A stretch of DNA of 64,000 nt from a virus. Its lineage: Duplodnaviria; Caudoviricetes. Below, piece by piece: positions 12,089 through 63,500 of this stretch (its first letter is position 1; each line of letters begins with the position of its first letter). The notes under the pieces were generated by a model. It saw nothing but the letters and a program-made list of their open reading frames with translations. It did not search any database and was not told where the DNA came from. The position numbers and the translations under genes were made by a program. The stretch lies in the IMG/VR virus record IMGVR_UViG_3300028833_000058; one strand, given 5' to 3'.

Positions 12089-12145
12089 GGTGCGAAGGAG
12101 AATATGAAGGAGAACAGAACGTGCTCTAAGGCGATTTAAAGACCC

Positions 12146-13084: not shown

Positions 13085-13339
13085 TTAAAGTATCTCTTCT
13101 AACTTATAGAGTTTAACACCTTTTGCTTTCTTGATATATTCAACCGTGAACTCATATTTACTTACGCAGCCGTATGAATTTACTTGATGTGCTGCTATGA
13201 TTACATCTGTAGGTGCAAATTGGTCAAAACAATCTACATCATCTACTAATGCAGCATCGACATCATAAAACTCACCATTGATTCTAATACCAGTGATTTC
13301 GTTTTTATGGTCGATAATCTTTTGTATAATGTTTTGCAT
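13085..13339 (-). CDS. hypothetical protein
   Basis: Strong RBS. Confidence 0.75.
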   Translation of the reverse strand: MQNIIQKIIDHKNEITGIRINGEFYDVDAALVDDVDCFDQFAPTDVIIAAHQVNSYGCVSKYEFTVEYIKKAKGVKLYKLEEIL

Positions 13340-13360
13340 GTCCTTTCTCCTTTGGTAATG

Positions 13361-13702
13361 TTACTCTAATTGTTCACTTACCCATCTTCCATTGAACTCT
13401 ACTGCTTCTGGTTCCTCACCATCTTCACAATCTGGATAGAAGTTAACGTAAGCACATAATCTTACACCCGTTGTATCATCGAACATGATTGTTGTATGAA
13501 TATGTTGATAGTCAATATCAGCTACACCAGAATCTGTTTCAGAGATTACAAAATCATCAAGAACATTAAGGTCATCTTTTAGAGAAGTTAATTTATTTTT
13601 AAACTCTTCTAAATTAGTGACCTTAAACATTCCTACTCTTCTGAGTTCAAATGTCAGTTCGTTAAGTTCTTGTCTAGCTTCTGATTCGTACTGCATCATC
13701 AT
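13361..13702 (-). CDS. hypothetical acidic protein
   Basis: Strong RBS. Confidence 0.75.
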   Translation of the reverse strand: MMMQYESEARQELNELTFELRRVGMFKVTNLEEFKNKLTSLKDDLNVLDDFVISETDSGVADIDYQHIHTTIMFDDTTGVRLCAYVNFYPDCEDGEEPEAVEFNGRWVSEQLE

Positions 13703-13708
13703 TCTCCT

Positions 13709-14320
13709 TTATTCGAATCTATCGTCATCGTAGCCAGCATCTTCAACGAATCTTATATCTTCAAGTTCATATCCAGCAGGAGCTTTATCAGTTACTTCTA
13801 GTAAATCACCTGCCCACATACCAACTGCATAAGAATCAGGATATTCAGTTCCATAATCACCACCGCCACGGCCATTACCAATTGCAGTAAGTAATGATAA
13901 CGGGTGAACAATCCAACCGTTGTTATTACATTTACTCATATAGAGGTCAAAGTCAAGATAACATTTGTGAGTATGGTTGACTAAAAACTTATGTGCATAA
14001 TTAAATTTACCTTTCATCTTCAACGGGGGTAAATCAACTTCGCCTTTTGGATAAATCTTTTTATAATCTATCCAATGAACATTCTTGAAATCTCCTTGTT
14101 CATCTGCATAATCACCACACCAAACCAATCTACCTTTATGGTTATATAATTCTTTTGTCATAGCGTCCATAAACTTATTACCAATCCAAGAATGTTCCAT
14201 AAGCTTTAAGCCGTTATAATCTTTGTAGTTATTGTAATTGTTACGTGAAGTAGAATATTGAGCATCAAAACGTCTAATCTCACCATCTTGTTCTAATGCT
14301 TGTCTGTAATATTGTCCCAT
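13709..14320 (-). CDS. conserved phage hypothetical protein (MGQYY..GLKLMEHSW..GRGGGDY family)
   Basis: Recognisable motifs; start at 14320 after GAAAGGA. Confidence 0.8.
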   Translation of the reverse strand: MGQYYRQALEQDGEIRRFDAQYSTSRNNYNNYKDYNGLKLMEHSWIGNKFMDAMTKELYNHKGRLVWCGDYADEQGDFKNVHWIDYKKIYPKGEVDLPPLKMKGKFNYAHKFLVNHTHKCYLDFDLYMSKCNNNGWIVHPLSLLTAIGNGRGGGDYGTEYPDSYAVGMWAGDLLEVTDKAPAGYELEDIRFVEDAGYDDDRFE

Positions 14321-14362
14321 TGTCTTAATCCTTTCGTTTCTGTTGCTGTTGAATATGTTTAT

Positions 14363-14411
14363 AATATACAAAGATTTCTTAAGAAAGTAAAGTCAGAATT
14401 TTACAATTAAT
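14363..14411 (-). promoter_or_regulatory. early promoter cassette (ATTAATTGTAA box, TTTACT -35)
   Basis: Repeated motif with 17-nt spacer. Confidence 0.75.
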
Positions 14412-14424
14412 TCGTTAAAGGGTC

Positions 14425-14513
14425 AAAAAAGAAATGGTGCCCTAGATAAGTAGCACCAGAGCACCATTTACATTTCAACAGATTACGAATTCATAATAAT
14501 ATGGACGACAATG
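14425..14513 (-). ncRNA. 3' UTR/terminator element antisense to early leaders
   Basis: Contains reverse complements of ATTTCAACAGATT(G)ACGAA and ACGACAATG, then AAATGGTGC/GCACCATTT stem + U run. Confidence 0.5.
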
Positions 14514-14828
14514 TTAAACTTTCTTATTTGAAATCTTTTCTTTATTATCAATTAATTTTTTAAATATGTGTCGCATTAAATCATGGTTCAGTTCTTTGTC
14601 TGTGGCCCAGGACTTAATGTGAGCCTTAATATATTCCTTTTCTTCTACTGTTAAGTCTAAGTTTTCAATCTCCTTTTTCATCATTCCCTGTAGTTTCTCA
14701 GCGTTGGACGTAATGTCCTTCTCATTGATTGCGTCACCAGTCAGTTCAAATAACTCATCGAAGAATTGTTCCGTAACTTTATGATGACTGTTAATATATA
14801 TTTCTTTAAGTTCTTGTTCTGATTTCAT
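14514..14828 (-). CDS. hypothetical protein
   Basis: GAAAGGA RBS before ATG 14828. Confidence 0.7.
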   Translation of the reverse strand: MKSEQELKEIYINSHHKVTEQFFDELFELTGDAINEKDITSNAEKLQGMMKKEIENLDLTVEEKEYIKAHIKSWATDKELNHDLMRHIFKKLIDNKEKISNKKV

Positions 14829-14842
14829 ATCCTTTCCTTCTG

Positions 14843-14917
14843 TTATTTTCTCCATTTCCTGGAACCTCTCTTGATGAGATGGTTCGCTTTTCTTACACTA
14901 ATTAATCTAAATGACAT
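14843..14917 (-). CDS. 24-aa basic peptide MSFRLISVRKANHLIKRGSRKWRK
   Basis: GAAAGGAG RBS, first ORF after promoter cassette. Confidence 0.6.
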   Translation of the reverse strand: MSFRLISVRKANHLIKRGSRKWRK

Positions 14918-14944
14918 TTGTTTCTCCTTTCATATATGTTAAAG

Positions 14945-14991
14945 TTAATAATGTAGTCTCTTAAAAAAGTAAAGTCAAATTAGTACAATTA
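14945..14991 (-). promoter_or_regulatory. early promoter cassette (variant box)
   Basis: ATAATTGTAC..ACTTTACTT. Confidence 0.65.
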
Positions 14992-15588
14992 TCACAACTG
15001 TTCTGATTTAGGCTGCACAATTTCAATGTTATAATATTTCATCAGTGAAAGAAAAGAAGATACAAACGCTTCGTTATTTTCACCAGAGAAATATCTAGGG
15101 TCATAATTCATATATTCAACGAATCTTACAATCCTATCTACTTCAAACGATTTGTCATCAGCATCAGGATGTTCACTGTAATATTTACTTCCTTCTGATT
15201 CAGGGTCATTAAAAATAAATAACTTGCCAGATTCTATTTGGCCGTATCTATTCATTTTAATTTTTAGCAGCATACCACCGTTGTTGTTATCCTGAGTGTC
15301 ATTAATCCACTTCATAACCTTTTCAGGCGTTGCTTTACCTTCAAACGGTACCTCATATTCTTTTCCGTTTAATAGATACCCTTTACTCAATCTTTCAGGA
15401 AATTTAATTCCCTCATCGCAATCACAGAAATAAGTGTTAACAAACATCATTATATCAAGTAACTGCATCTTACCAATTCCCCATTGGTTGTGATATGAAC
15501 CAACGTAAGTCTTCTTGACATCTTTACCAGTGTCATAATCACGTTGTGGTTTAGTTACCTCTATCACTAATTGTGTTCTTTGTCCCAT
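14992..15588 (-). CDS. conserved phage hypothetical protein (MGQR..QWG..DNNNG)
   Basis: RBS and motifs. Confidence 0.78.
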   Translation of the reverse strand: MGQRTQLVIEVTKPQRDYDTGKDVKKTYVGSYHNQWGIGKMQLLDIMMFVNTYFCDCDEGIKFPERLSKGYLLNGKEYEVPFEGKATPEKVMKWINDTQDNNNGGMLLKIKMNRYGQIESGKLFIFNDPESEGSKYYSEHPDADDKSFEVDRIVRFVEYMNYDPRYFSGENNEAFVSSFLSLMKYYNIEIVQPKSEQL

Positions 15589-15590
15589 TG

Positions 15591-16043
15591 TTATTCTCCT
15601 TCAATTATTTTTGTGATATCTGTTTTAACTTTTTTAAGCACATTCACTTTATCTTCAAGCGTAGGTGCTTTGATTATCCAAGATGTTGAACCACTGAACA
15701 CTACGTTGCTATGGTTACTTGAAAGATGTAATACAAGATAATCAGGGTCATTGTGTAACCAAAAATGTAACTTCATACCTCTATCATCACATCTTAAACC
15801 AAGTTCGCTTTCGTGGATGTAAGATTTGTTCTTATCAAAGTAAGCATAAATCTTGCTAAGCTTACTTATGTTACCAGTTTTCAATAAATCAAAACTCATT
15901 GAGCGATGGCGTTTGCAATATGTTTCAAGTTCTTGTGTCTTGTTTTCTTTTTCTTTTTCTAAACTATAAAGCTTAAGTCTTGCTTTTGATTCTTCACGCT
16001 CATACTTTTCAAAACGTGTTAATGGCTTTTTACTCATTGTCAT
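15591..16043 (-). CDS. hypothetical protein
   Basis: RBS within conserved leader. Confidence 0.75.
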   Translation of the reverse strand: MTMSKKPLTRFEKYEREESKARLKLYSLEKEKENKTQELETYCKRHRSMSFDLLKTGNISKLSKIYAYFDKNKSYIHESELGLRCDDRGMKLHFWLHNDPDYLVLHLSSNHSNVVFSGSTSWIIKAPTLEDKVNVLKKVKTDITKIIEGE

Positions 16044-16069
16044 TCTCCTTTCGTCAATCTGTTGAAATT

Positions 16070-16118
16070 ATGATATCAAGAATCCCACTAAAAGTAAAGT
16101 GAGATTCTTACAATTAAT
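16070..16118 (-). promoter_or_regulatory. early promoter cassette
   Basis: ATTAATTGTAA-N9-TTTACT-N17-TATCAT. Confidence 0.8.
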
Positions 16119-16128
16119 TCCTAAGTCA

Positions 16129-16443
16129 TTAAAATGGAATAATAAAATGATTTGTAATTAATTCAATGAGGTCATCTCCAAAGTTGACATCAAACTCATC
16201 ACATTTGAACTCATCATCCATGAGAACACCACCGTCTGAATCTAAAGTACACTCATCAATTTTATTACCATTCAAATCTTTGACTTCAACATGATAAATG
16301 TCTTCCTCGTCATTATCTCTATAACAAAAGACATTGTACGTTATCATTGTTTTAGTGTCATAGATTCTAAATTGAACCTCCTCTAAAGTAACTGTTTCAC
16401 GTTCAATGCTACCACAAGCCATTATCTTTAATCTATCGGACAT
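16129..16443 (-). CDS. hypothetical acidic protein
   Basis: ORF in operon. Confidence 0.7.
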   Translation of the reverse strand: MSDRLKIMACGSIERETVTLEEVQFRIYDTKTMITYNVFCYRDNDEEDIYHVEVKDLNGNKIDECTLDSDGGVLMDDEFKCDEFDVNFGDDLIELITNHFIIPF

Positions 16444-17882: not shown

Positions 17883-18575
17883 CTAAGATTCTTCACAATA
17901 GTCTTCGTAGTCATAACCCCAAACTTCACAAGCAAACTTTCTAGGGTTATCAATAGCTACTTCTTCAACTTCTCCATTTTCAAAGCGTAAGATACCACAG
18001 TTACTACCAATGTCTTCATCAGCGTAGGTTACTTCAATGACTTCGTTTGGTAACGCTTCAGAAAGTTTGATATACACAGGTGAAGGTATAGACCAAGCTG
18101 TTTGAAATTCTATAACATTACCATCAATGTTTGTACTAGAAGCATTCCATTTCGTTCCCCAATTCTCTAAAGCCCAGTTATACCAATTTATTGAACCATA
18201 ACGTTTTAAATTGAAGTAACCAGCTATGTAGGTACGAATATGTGAAATGTTTGTATTAGAAAAATTTTTCAACTTACAAATAGCTTTTACAACTAATTCG
18301 TTTTTCATAATTTTGTCAACGAATTTTACCTGTGTTGTTTTTTCATTATAACACTTTTCAAATTCTTTGATTATAACTAATTCACATACATCTTTTTCTG
18401 AATGTAATCCTTCGTATTCTATGTTTGAATAATCACAAAAACCAGCATCAATGTCAAGGTCTTTTGGTCTAGGTACAATTTTATTGAAATCTACATTACC
18501 TTCTTCATTTACAAGTAAATTCATCAATTCACTCATATTAGAGCAAGTTACTCTGTTTATAACCCAATTTGGCAT
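17883..18575 (-). CDS. DUF1281/YubB-like ferredoxin-fold protein
   Basis: MPNWV-N, DFNKIVP, WYNW..NWGTKWNA, F-TAWS-P, YADED-G-NCG. Confidence 0.8.
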   Translation of the reverse strand: MPNWVINRVTCSNMSELMNLLVNEEGNVDFNKIVPRPKDLDIDAGFCDYSNIEYEGLHSEKDVCELVIIKEFEKCYNEKTTQVKFVDKIMKNELVVKAICKLKNFSNTNISHIRTYIAGYFNLKRYGSINWYNWALENWGTKWNASSTNIDGNVIEFQTAWSIPSPVYIKLSEALPNEVIEVTYADEDIGSNCGILRFENGEVEEVAIDNPRKFACEVWGYDYEDYCEES

Positions 18576-18610
18576 TGCCGTTCTCCTTTCGTCAATCTGT
18601 TGATTTATAA

Positions 18611-18659
18611 ATTATAACTCACCTTACCATAGAAGTAAAGTGAGTTAATTACAATTAAT
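18611..18659 (-). promoter_or_regulatory. early promoter cassette
   Basis: ATTAATTGTAA-N9-TTTACT-N17-TATAAT. Confidence 0.8.
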
Positions 18660-18867: not shown

Positions 18868-19425
18868 CTATCTAAAATATTCTCTACTGTCAATGTAAAC
18901 ACTACCTTTTCCATTTGCACAATCTCTTAAAGAAGTTGCGTGAAAAGCAGAACGACTTAAACCAGATAAGAATTCGTGTGTCCCTAACATTCTTTTTGCT
19001 GTTCTTGCGCTAACCTTTTTCCCACGAGAAGTTTCAAAGGTAGTATGTTCAATCACTCTGTCTATTTGGTATATGTCTTTCGTGTCATATCCCCATTCTT
19101 TTAACAGAGAAATATCACTATTCTTTAGATTTTTAATAGTGTCTTTTTGAGTTTCATCATAAGGTTTTATTTCACCTTCCCAAATCATAAAGGTATTCGC
19201 ACAAGGTACAACTGGCTTATCAAATCCTTCTAATTTGAAAACGTCAGCTTCTCCATCGTGAATTTTATAAAACTTATCGTAATCATAAGTTCCTTTATAT
19301 TTATTAAAAGTGTTATCTAAATACACATCTGTTCTTGTGTAGTTTATCGCAGCTCCTTTGATGGTATCTGCAAATTGTCCAAGAACTGTGAATTTGTGTC
19401 CTCTATATTTAAACGTCTTACGCAT
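18868..19425 (-). CDS. hypothetical protein
   Basis: GAGGAGAACGACAATG start. Confidence 0.75.
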   Translation of the reverse strand: MRKTFKYRGHKFTVLGQFADTIKGAAINYTRTDVYLDNTFNKYKGTYDYDKFYKIHDGEADVFKLEGFDKPVVPCANTFMIWEGEIKPYDETQKDTIKNLKNSDISLLKEWGYDTKDIYQIDRVIEHTTFETSRGKKVSARTAKRMLGTHEFLSGLSRSAFHATSLRDCANGKGSVYIDSREYFR

Positions 19426-19704: not shown

Positions 19705-19753
19705 GTTATATCATATTTTATCTTTAAGGTAAAGTCAGATTCTTACAATTAAT
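19705..19753 (-). promoter_or_regulatory. early promoter cassette
   Basis: ATTAATTGTAA-N9-TTTACC-N17-TATAAC. Confidence 0.78.
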
Positions 19754-21899: not shown

Positions 21900-21947
21900 A
21901 TTATACATAGTCATAAATAAAAGTAAATTCAAATTCTTACAATTAAT
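21900..21947 (-). promoter_or_regulatory. early promoter cassette
   Basis: Near-identical to 22750-22797. Confidence 0.8.
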
Positions 21948-22749: not shown

Positions 22750-22797
22750 ATTATATACAATCATAAATAAAAGTAAATTCAAAACCTTACAATTAAT
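22750..22797 (-). promoter_or_regulatory. early promoter cassette
   Basis: ATTAATTGTAA..TTTACT..TATAAT. Confidence 0.8.
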
Positions 22798-33497: not shown

Positions 33498-33546
33498 ATT
33501 ATACACGTTTATCATCTTTTAGGCAAGTGAGATTCTTACAATTAAT
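33498..33546 (-). promoter_or_regulatory. early promoter cassette
   Basis: ATTAATTGTAA-N9-TTGCCT-N17-TATAAT. Confidence 0.8.
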
Positions 33547-60594: not shown

Positions 60595-63500
60595 ATGGCA
60601 ACAGGAAATACAAGTGCAAGAAGTAGAAAAGTAATTTTAGCAGACGTTGAGTTTACTGAAAATGGTTTGTATATTCCAAGTGAAGAAGTGACTGGCTTCG
60701 GTAGAGTTACTGTTGCTGTACCACCTGACGCTAGAAGAAAACCTATTTATATAACACCTACTGCTACTAATATTGTAAGTCAACCTACTTGGGATGAATA
60801 TACTGGTCCTTATGTTGACGAATACGTAAAAACAATCGGGTACAAAAAAGAAAATAGAACCGTTTATGATTTTAATAATAATTACTTAGGCACTTGTTCA
60901 ATTGAAGGTGTTATAACTGATGATTCTGGTAATGTTATCGGTAAAGTTTCAAATTATCGTGTAATACGTGACGAAGATAATATAATCATAGGTTACGCAG
61001 ATGACAAAAACTTTGCGTTTAATCTAGAAGATAACCAGATAGGTAAAGTATTAGGTGACAATTCAGTAATCAATGACGAAGGGGATGTCATAGGAGAAGC
61101 ATCTTTTACTGAATATCTTGCTTACAATAATAACGAGAACGAGTTTGTTGGCGTAAGAGACATAAAAGTAAGAAAGATTGGTGCATGGATAGATTCTAAC
61201 ATTTCTGCAGATAACATTCGTCAAGGGCATAGTATTTTAGGTGTTGCAGGTAATGTGGTAGAGCTACTTGGAGAAGAAAGAACTGTAAATTCAAGTACTT
61301 CTACACAAACTATTACTCCTTCTAGTGGAAAAAACGCTATTACAAAAGTTACTGTAAATCCTTACACACTAGGAACAAGAACGGTTGACCCAGAGTTCGA
61401 AAGAAAAACATATTATACACCTAGTGGATACAATGGAATGTCTTCCTTTACAGTAAATCCAATTGATGTTCAAACTATCGTAGAAGAAGAACCGCAGTTA
61501 AAAGCAGAAAACATTAAGAAAAACGTTAGATTGTTTGATGGTCAAATTGTAGGTACATATGATAATTATGTAGCTCCAGTCGTTCAACCTGTATCAATTT
61601 CACCAACAACCTCTCAACAGATTGTAAATGCACCAAGTGGTGTTGATGGTTTCAATAGGGTTACTGTTGATGCTGTTACTTCCACCATTGACCCAAACAT
61701 TCAAGCAAGTAACATCAAAAAAGATGTAACAATATTGGGCGTTACAGGTACATATCGTACTGAAAATTTACAAGATAAAACTGTAGACCCACAACAATTT
61801 CTCCAAGTTGTAAGCTACGATTCAACACAATACGATGGATTAAATTCTGTTACAGTAAACGCAGTTACGAACACTATTGATGCTAACATACAAGCTGGTA
61901 ACATTAAGAAAAATGTACAAATTTTAGGTGTAACAGGTGATTATGACCCACAACCAAATATTCAAGCACCTGTTACGGTTACTCCTAGTACATTACAACA
62001 ATCTGTAACTCCAGACCAAGGTTATGATGGTTTAGGTAGAGTTGATATAAATGCTGTTACATCTTCAATAGACCCAAACATCTTGGCTGAGAATATTAAG
62101 AAAAACATTGAAATTTTAGGGGTTACTGGTAGTTATGACCCTCAACCTAATTATCAAGCTTCTAAAACAGTCCAACCAGTTAGTTCTGGTGATGTTGAAG
62201 TTACAGCAGACCCAACTTATGACGCATTGCTAAAGGTTATAGTTAAAGCAGTTACAGCTTCTATTGACCCTAACATCATGCCTAAAAACATAAGAAAGAA
62301 TGTGAGTATTTTAGGTGTTTTAGGTACAATGGAGGAAGGTGGAGAACAGAAGTGGTTTGACTTTTCTGGAATTCAAAACTTTGTTGAATTGAATCAAGAC
62401 GCTTTTAGTGAAGGTGGAACAGAATCTATATCAATCGTTATCGATAAAAATAATTATGAACTTAAAAAACTTATAGATGACACATTTCCAGCTATTAGTA
62501 ACATAAATGCAGTTATGTTCAGTGAAGTTTATGGATATAACGATGAAGAAATGACTAACCCAATAACAAAACAATGCTACATTGATTTTGTTGATGGTTA
62601 TATGTATCAAGATTATAGTACAACAACATATATACCAAATCAAATTCGCTATTTTTATTCATTTGATAACAATTATGGTGTAAATGGTTTAACAATTGGA
62701 TTGGCCAATGACGATGGGTCAGCAAGGACAATGAAACTTTATGTAATTGCTGACAGCACTAAAAATAATAAACCTATTCCTGTTCTTGTAAATGGTAATA
62801 TGACTGTTAGTGATTTACCAGAAGATTATGATGACTTTAGATATGTAAAAGACATTGAGGTTCCAGCACATGATGTATATATACCAAAATTTATAGAAAA
62901 AGATAACGTTCAATGGGTATTACGTGATGAAGATGGTATAAGAACAAAAGTAATTGAGTCAGTTGAAATTGAACCAAACAATGTTGAGGTAAGTGCTTAC
63001 GATAGAGACTACGGCACACAGGATGTAGAAACAGATAGTGTGATAGGATATAGATTGAGACATTTCAACAATTTAGTTCTCAACGAAGATACATTAGTCG
63101 CTAGTCAAATAGATACAAGTAAAAATGGTACAATTCTTATTTTAAATGATTTTGTTAAACAAGACCAAAGTTATTACTACTTTGCATTTAAGCCAAGTGC
63201 ATACAATGGAAGTAATACATACCATACAGTTGCTAAATGTGAAGGTTTATTCCAAGTAGGTTTTTACAGAAATAGTAGTGATTCTTATTACAGACCAGCT
63301 TGGGTTTCATCTTGGTCATCTGCTAGTGCTGGAACTTGGAGCAACAACAGTACGTCTAGTTACAGAATGTACAATGGAACGACATATTATTACAGAATTT
63401 ATGTAAACGGTACAACTACGATTATAGATTGGTCTAACAATGGAACAACCTGGGTAACAATGGGAACTGTTACGAGTGAGTATATTGACCCATTGAACAC

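Follow-up and report, generated by a model that had tools for sequence, protein, structure and literature searches.

The window analysed in this work, a stretch of 64,000 nucleotides, is part of a 148-kb IMG/VR record of an uncultured rumen phage (62% complete according to CheckV, 32% G+C). Near-identical DNA is present in sheep gut metagenomes. Comparison of the region with public phage records by megablast and blastn gave no match, and the best protein match of the helicase among deposited phages was only about 30% identical, i.e. there is no close relative among them. Single-protein scans of IMG/VR and of the genome sets did not find a relative, nor did a protein alignment search of IMG/VR and genome_contigs. 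Scanning IMG/VR and the genomes with the promoter box yielded three raw matches, and scanning them with the tail motif described below yielded five, every one of which was in unrelated coding sequence. The window and the genome record differ by one base at position 63040.

Between 12 and 34 kb the window contains a block of small minus-strand genes, which are transcribed from eight copies of a single promoter cassette (Table 1). The cassette consists of the box TTAATTGTAAGAATCTSACTTTAC, followed after 16-17 nt by a TATAAT-like hexamer. Common to the eight early promoters is the upstream box (A)ATTAATTGTAAGAATCT, which adjoins the CTTTAC(T) -35 element, and in five of the eight cassette leaders CAACAG stands directly upstream of the SD. 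One of the early proteins, 230 aa long and encoded at 17883-18575 on the minus strand, has a C-terminal DUF1281_C domain (E 1e-11), the ferredoxin-like domain of Api92-like proteins.

The transcription unit considered here starts at promoter 16117 and comprises, in this order, a leader, the genes 15591-16037 and 14992-15588, an internal promoter at 14992, a 24-codon ORF, the gene 14514-14828 (P0001), a short tail and a terminator. No minus-strand terminator was predicted within the unit (16035 to 14514). The structure model of the P0001 protein is a helical bundle (pLDDT 79) without a match in PDB; for this protein and the others of the unit no Pfam family was found, and the Pfam and PHROGs searches returned nothing useful. 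The small ORF is conserved in the relatives described below (L009-L030), where it has 23-26 codons, is basic, has a strong SD and lies about 400-420 nt upstream of the P0001 stop codon. It reads MAFRFISVRKANNLIKRGSRKWRK and similar, and was recovered in 15 of the 16 loci; in the remaining one, L029, the same start is present. Its product could function as a leader peptide or as a small RNA-binding protein. Transcription from the internal promoter is predicted to give a short mRNA, which would carry the small ORF, P0001 and the tail, without the leader to which the tail is complementary.

RNA data suggest that the early region is expressed in the rumen: over 13300-16300, contigs assembled from two RNA libraries of a single sheep gut metatranscriptome agree with the early genes at 99% or better (14065-14334, 14624-15078 and 15329-16186) and cross both promoters of the unit, DNA carry-over in the library being possible. 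None of them covers 14335-14535, which, with assembled contigs, speaks neither for nor against a stable tail fragment or a transcript end.

Directly past the TAA stop codon of P0001 (14516-14514) the minus strand reads CATTGTCGTCC (14513-14503), ATATTATTATG (14502-14492) and AATTCGTAATCTGTTGAAATG (14491-14471); the tail, from the stop of the gene to its terminator, is 44 nt long. The terminator hairpin has the stems AAATGGTGC/GCACCATTT (14469-14432), is followed by CTTTTTTG (14431-14424), and folds with -26.2 kcal/mol (z -3.9). An earlier note on this DNA had described the segment as a 3' UTR immediately past the stop codon on the minus strand, ending in a terminator, and both the sequence and the fold of the hairpin bear this out. 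The same note had distinguished two antisense modules directed against early leaders and start codons of the phage. The antisense relation to leaders and starts is real, but the modules are not independent seeds: in all ten genomes compared (see below) the tail, taken as reverse complement, can be aligned with the entire leader up to the start codon, thus the two modules constitute one collinear inverted copy of a leader and its TIR. Read on the plus strand, the element comprises the leader (CATTTCAACAGATT-ACGAA) and GGACGACAATG, between which an A/T-rich insert replaces the SD.

Table 1. Features of the transcription unit, its tail and the related early leaders
Feature	Position	Strand	Description
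Module 1 of the tail, CAUUGUCGUCC	14503..14513	-	antisense to spacer, start codon and part of the SD of early TIRs; adjoins the stop codon
AU box, AUAUUAUUAUG	14492..14502	-	highest conservation within the tail; leader contains no partner; internal loop opposite the SD
Module 2 of the tail, AAUUCGUAAUCUGUUGAAAUG	14471..14491	-	antisense to the leader AUUUCAACAGAUU(G)ACGAA
Intrinsic terminator	14424..14469	-	9-bp outer stem extending to 14 pairs, then U tract
Gene P0001	14514..14828	-	104 aa, all-helical, last gene of the unit
Basic small ORF of 24 codons, MSFRLISVRKANHLIKRGSRKWRK	14843..14917	-	strong SD, behind the internal promoter
Internal early promoter	14950..14992	-	TTGACT-17-TACATT, partial upstream box
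Leader and TIR of the first gene of the unit, AAUUUCAACAGAUUGACGAAAGGAGAAUGACAAUG	16035..16069	-	best partner of the tail, 1.5 kb upstream
Early promoter cassette of the unit	16070..16117	-	TTAATTGTAAGAATCTCACTTTAC box, then TTTACT-17-TATCAT
Second leader with the same core, AUCAACAGAUUGACGAAAGGAGAACGGCAAUG	18573..18604	-	second-best partner, duplex -26.2 to -27.2 kcal/mol
Leader of the next downstream gene	14318..14356	-	behind cassette 14387-14410; weaker partner, -22.9 kcal/mol
Eight early promoters	14387-14410, 14969-14992, 16094-16117, 18635-18658, 19729-19752, 21923-21946, 22773-22796, 33522-33545	-	

No Rfam 15 family was found for the tail; the two matches obtained (E 0.25 and 0.82) were at chance level and far below the gathering scores. 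Reading of the window and of the relatives' sequences revealed no -35/-10 pair for a promoter inside the tail. The AU box was considered as a -10 element on either strand and rejected, since it is accompanied neither by a -35 or a TG motif nor by conserved spacing. In the same phage a further tail contains anti-TIR sequence: at the far end of the early block (12094-12114, minus strand) two copies of UUCUCCUUC, an anti-SD sequence, lie just 5' of a hairpin (ACCCTCAG...CTGAGGGT), which is without a clear U tract.

Relatives of the unit were found in metagenomes. P0001 has 25 metagenome homologues with 57-88% identity, and through these we fetched 16 distinct metagenomic contigs, which served as the comparison set. 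The earlier note had made its proposal depend on conservation in related phages; the element is kept between the stop codon and the terminator in all 16 contigs, together with the terminator hairpin. It has a single orientation throughout, and no joints were seen in the DNA run. The order past the stop codon in the relatives is a GU-rich module 1, the box TATTATTAT, a variable spacer, module 2, the hairpin and the next promoter cassette. Module 1 takes the form (CA)TTGTCGTC, TTGTTGTCCT or ATTGTTACTCCTT; as UUGUUGUCCU or AUUGUUACUCCUU it is complementary to the SD and the spacer, and the part complementary to the start codon (CAUUG) is limited to the window's own clade. Module 2 is GTTATCTGTTGAAGTG in most relatives and is reduced in L017 and L029. 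A promoter is present at -445 to -469 from the P0001 stop codon in the 15 relatives that extend that far upstream. In most relatives the internal promoter before the small ORF lacks the upstream box, which hints at two promoter classes.

The AU box (UAUUAUUAU in the window) coincides with the invariant columns of the relatives' alignment. In all of them it varies less than any other part of the tail, although the leader contains no complement to it. The box may serve as a nuclease site or a protein-binding site; its conservation is explained neither by the pairing nor by any of the rival readings discussed below.

In the larger clade of relatives UUGUUGUCCU is an exact complement, 8-10 nt long, of the TIR GAAAGGACAAC(A/G)A (L010:5151-5160, L009:6302-6311, L013:4062-4069, L017:5503-5511), which belongs to a gene 1.8-3 kb downstream. 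The TIR AGGACAACAA was considered as a second conserved target of module 1 and rejected; it is found in L009, L010, L013 and L017, and is absent from the window's orthologue of the L013/L017 gene (13085-13339).

Pairwise identity among the contigs was 0.70 in the single-stranded tail, 0.64 in the terminator hairpin, 0.45 with many indels in the spacer behind the terminator, 0.75 in the promoter region, and 0.65 at the four-fold degenerate sites of the gene. Conservation of the tail is about at the level of the promoter and much above that of the neutral-looking spacer, and only slightly above that of the four-fold sites. The divergence within the phage family is limited, as the identity at four-fold sites indicates, and this weakens the argument from conservation.

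Every complementarity listed in the earlier note, to leader motifs and to RBS-to-start spacers, including the one with a single bulge, is present in the sequence. Copies of TTTCAACAG lie at 16059, 19686 and 21875 (minus strand) and at 14473 (plus strand); the six matches of this motif in the window compare with 1.4 expected, and none of 100 shuffles gets to six. ACGACAATG is found at the starts 19425, 21511, 26673 and 31974 and in a plus-strand copy at 14505 (five matches vs. 0.3 expected). The leader 16069-16035 matches the tail with one bulged G, the leader 18604-18573 has the same core, and perfect 12-mer complements are present in the leaders 19697-19673 and 21886-21863. If transcription starts about 7 nt past the -10 element, the leader motif of the window would lack its first 5 nt in the RNA. 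When duplexes of the tail were calculated with 199 TIRs, the best was formed with the leader 16069-16035 (-29.2 kcal/mol, 29 pairs), covering the spacer and the start codon. The best duplex of shuffled tails averaged -23.9 kcal/mol (sd 1.9), one of 120 equalling -29.2 kcal/mol, and only the TIRs 16037 and 18575 surpassed the level of shuffled tails. In a comparison of 18 TIRs the leader 16069-16035 again ranked first.

Five TIRs contain a 10-mer complement to the tail, as compared with 1.0 for shuffles (p 0.0065), and these five represent one leader/TIR family. With 9-mers, 8% of the genomic 44-mers reach the level of the tail and a shuffled tail matches about 3.7 TIRs; the 9-mer matches at 19425, 21511, 26673 and 31974 reflect the common TIR consensus. 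The local-alignment score of the tail is in the top 1.4% of genomic 44-mer windows, most of the higher windows being antisense to other TIRs, and among 128 3' flanks the tail ties for 4th to 7th place. Judged by this genome alone, the complementarity is moderately unusual (about the top 1-5%), not extreme.

The relation between tail and leader could be followed in ten genomes in which both the tail and the upstream unit leader were on the contig, 1.5-2.8 kb apart. In nine of these the tail paired with its own leader more strongly than shuffled tails did (z -2.3 to -4.9; mean -2.9), the exception being L029, whose own pairing was no better than that of shuffles (z -0.9). Covariation in related phages had been proposed as a check in the earlier note, and tail and leader do change together: the duplex energies of own pairs sum to -249.3, those of permuted pairs to -219.5 (sd 9.6), which corresponds to a permutation p of 0.001 for the ten genomes, and the exact p within the larger clade alone is 0.024. 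Matched changes can be recognized in several genomes. L023 has CAGAGAA/UUCUCUG where the others have CAGAUAA/UUAUCUG, L021 has A/U where the others have C/G, the window and L012 have ACGACAA/UUGUCGU in place of ACAACAA/UUGUUGU, and in L017 CAGAU is missing from tail and leader alike. The co-variation signal rests largely on about four events. Counted by columns the covariation is weak (77% paired vs. 71% in permutations, p 0.017), because the leaders contain indels.

The earlier note had seen the main target of the tail in a broad set of early cistrons. This was not upheld: the main partner is the leader of the tail's own unit, which ranks first or second among 7-22 TIRs in all ten genomes. 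It is a better partner than the leader of the downstream gene in eight of the ten, and of these three the one behind the internal promoter pairs least well in nine. The first gene of the unit varies among the genomes (148 aa, 114 aa or 73-100 aa) and the tail-leader relation holds nevertheless, thus the relation appears to be a property of the architecture of the unit, not of one target protein.

Other calculations, which at first sight spoke for pairing, lost their weight when shuffled tails were used as controls. Whole-transcript MFE folds join the two ends of the transcript in most genomes; shuffled tails give similar end pairing (23 pairs vs. 3-22 with shuffled tails), therefore these folds add little. 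The duplex formed on the gene strand is stronger than that on the opposite strand in all ten genomes, by a mean of -3.25 kcal/mol, and G-U pairs number 19 in the gene-strand duplexes and 4 in the opposite-strand duplexes. The same strand difference is -1.9 kcal/mol for shuffled tails, hence the bias is mostly compositional, and G-U pairs cannot separate a role of the RNA from a role of the DNA.

We think there is an even chance that the tail mimics, in antisense, the leader and TIR with which its own unit begins, and that RNA pairing of the type described for the icaR mRNA (see below) limits early expression. Transcript ends, pairing in vivo and an effect on translation or decay are what we infer here. 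The transcribed tail would base-pair with the leader of the first gene, module 2 with the CA-rich part of the leader, and module 1 with the spacer and start codon (in the relatives also with the SD), the AU box forming an internal loop between them. Such a duplex would hide the ribosome-binding region, and, being long and imperfect, it might be a substrate of a double-strand RNase, so that early expression would be self-limiting. Since the pairing covers the spacer and the start codon, and in relatives the SD as well, repression of initiation and formation of a double-strand RNase substrate are the likely consequences. Two modes can be envisaged. In cis, the pairing would take place inside the long transcript, as in icaR; in trans, the short mRNA from 14992 would bring the tail, and could also reach sister leaders such as 18604-18573.

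Several other explanations have to be weighed against this one. The tail may be an inert relic, i.e. an undecayed duplicate of the leader cassette lying inverted behind the gene, with the co-variation being due to common descent and a small number of chance events. A duplication would be expected to leave just such a collinear inverted copy, and the moderate divergence (0.65 at four-fold sites), the small number of covariation events and the moderate in-genome statistics are all compatible with such an origin. A relic should, however, have decayed like the adjoining noncoding spacer, which is down to an identity of 0.45 with many indels, while the tail is at 0.70; nor would one expect the stop-to-hairpin position to be kept in 16 contigs, matched changes to occur on two sides 1.5-2.8 kb apart, or the tail-leader relation to stay when the first gene of the unit is exchanged. 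We consider this origin unlikely, though by no means far-fetched. Rather improbable in our judgement is the proposal of the earlier note, according to which a stable small RNA of about 90 nt, processed or made from its own promoter, silences many early cistrons in trans through CAACAG and the ACGACAAUG spacer. Such an RNA would have its terminator in common with the mRNA, as 3'-UTR-derived small RNAs do; it would find the perfect 12-mers in the leaders 19697-19673 and 21886-21863 and 9-mers in four TIRs, and in relatives another TIR, AGGACAACAA (L010:5164, L009:6315), has an exact 10-mer complement in module 1. But no -35/-10 pair of an internal promoter was found, only the TIRs 16037 and 18575 are beyond the reach of shuffled tails, the anti-start part is restricted to one clade, the window lacks the additional module 1 target, and in a genome so rich in A+T short exact complements to TIRs are frequent (a shuffled tail matches about 3.7 TIRs at k = 9).

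The identity of an inverted DNA repeat is indistinguishable from complementarity of RNA, and the G-U test does not discriminate between them; the two copies might therefore be inverted protein-binding sites (operators, or recombination or inversion sites), which bracket the unit and co-evolve with the binding protein. The leader motif of the window indeed contains a partial dyad, TTCAACA-GAT-TGACGAA. This dyad is, however, not kept in the relatives, recombinase sites would not be expected to show the 4-10 nt variation in module spacing and the indels between the copies, the orientation is the same in all contigs, with no joints in the DNA run, several cassette promoters are without the motif, and no recombinase gene was seen nearby, so that a role at the DNA level seems quite improbable. 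Even less credence can be given to the idea that in read-through RNA the downstream gene has its TIR masked by the tail, transcripts from the proximal promoter 14410 remaining translatable. Some T4 genes are read from early and late promoters, an arrangement to which this could be likened. The MFE fold of the intergenic RNA does pair both modules with the leader 14356-14318, and the downstream leader of L012 and L015 contains a near-perfect match, but when read-through RNAs of 15 genomes were folded, the mean number of pairs between the tail and the downstream TIR was 16.1, as compared with 17.5 for shuffled tails, and the upstream leader is the better partner in eight of ten genomes. There remains the plus strand, which the earlier note had named as the reading that would speak against its own: a promoter-leader cassette, decayed or active, for an antisense transcript or a tiny ORF. 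The plus strand of the window does read leader, weak SD, ATG and then a 6-codon ORF. In most relatives the ATG is missing, and no plus-strand ORF or promoter is conserved; there is no promoter-like site on the plus strand at 14440-14520, the spacing of the possible hexamers is not conserved, and what lies directly upstream on this strand is the terminator hairpin, not a promoter. We regard this alternative as practically negligible.

Early-gene shut-off in phages is usually ascribed to transcription factors, nucleases and protein repressors of translation. If the tail acts as an antisense mimic of its own unit's leader, it would represent a simple, host-independent RNA device making early expression transient, and it would add polycistronic phage messages to the very few bacterial mRNAs for which 5'/3'-UTR pairing is known. 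One may go further and speculate, with a rather small chance of being right, that anti-leader tails are a general, so far undescribed device of phage early operons, the 3' end of each unit silencing its own leader once the unit has been fully transcribed. The length of the transcript would then serve as a timer for host-takeover genes, perhaps aided by the conserved 24-residue basic peptide from the same short mRNA, and the anti-SD tail at 12094-12114 would be a further case.

It is instructive to compare the phage tail with known regulatory RNAs. CpxQ, DapZ and RsaC are small RNAs derived from 3' UTRs, which use the terminator of the mRNA. The phage tail resembles them in having an unstructured seed directly upstream of the gene's own terminator, and differs from them in that no internal promoter was found. 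Regulatory 3' UTRs of bacteria have been reviewed (PMC5502269). In Listeria monocytogenes mRNA-mRNA pairing couples the expression of a virulence factor and its chaperone (PMC8722363). A coding mRNA there regulates another mRNA through a UTR, as in the trans version proposed for the 14992 transcript; in the phage the partners belong to one operon, and repression is expected. [quoted passage not shown] Common to the two systems would be long-range UTR-UTR pairing within one mRNA, a similar length of pairing (14-19 bp for module 2) and the low-GC Gram-positive setting; the hbs pairing protects the leader and stabilizes the mRNA, whereas the phage pairing covers the start region, which makes repression more likely.

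The closest parallel is the icaR mRNA of Staphylococcus aureus, whose 3' UTR contains the motif UCCCCUG; by pairing with the SD region of that mRNA, the motif prevents initiation and gives rise to an RNase III substrate (PMC3868564). The phage transcript differs from it in being polycistronic, with 1.5-2.8 kb between the partners, and in having an internal promoter that would yield a second transcript without the partner leader. In place of a 7-nt anti-SD motif the phage tail copies the whole leader, with about 25-30 predicted pairs in two blocks, with the SD of the window's clade in an internal loop. In both cases a 3' UTR is complementary to the TIR at the 5' end of the same transcript, a predicted one in the phage, the pairing can be thought of in cis or in trans, and lower translation and faster decay of the message would be the expected outcome.
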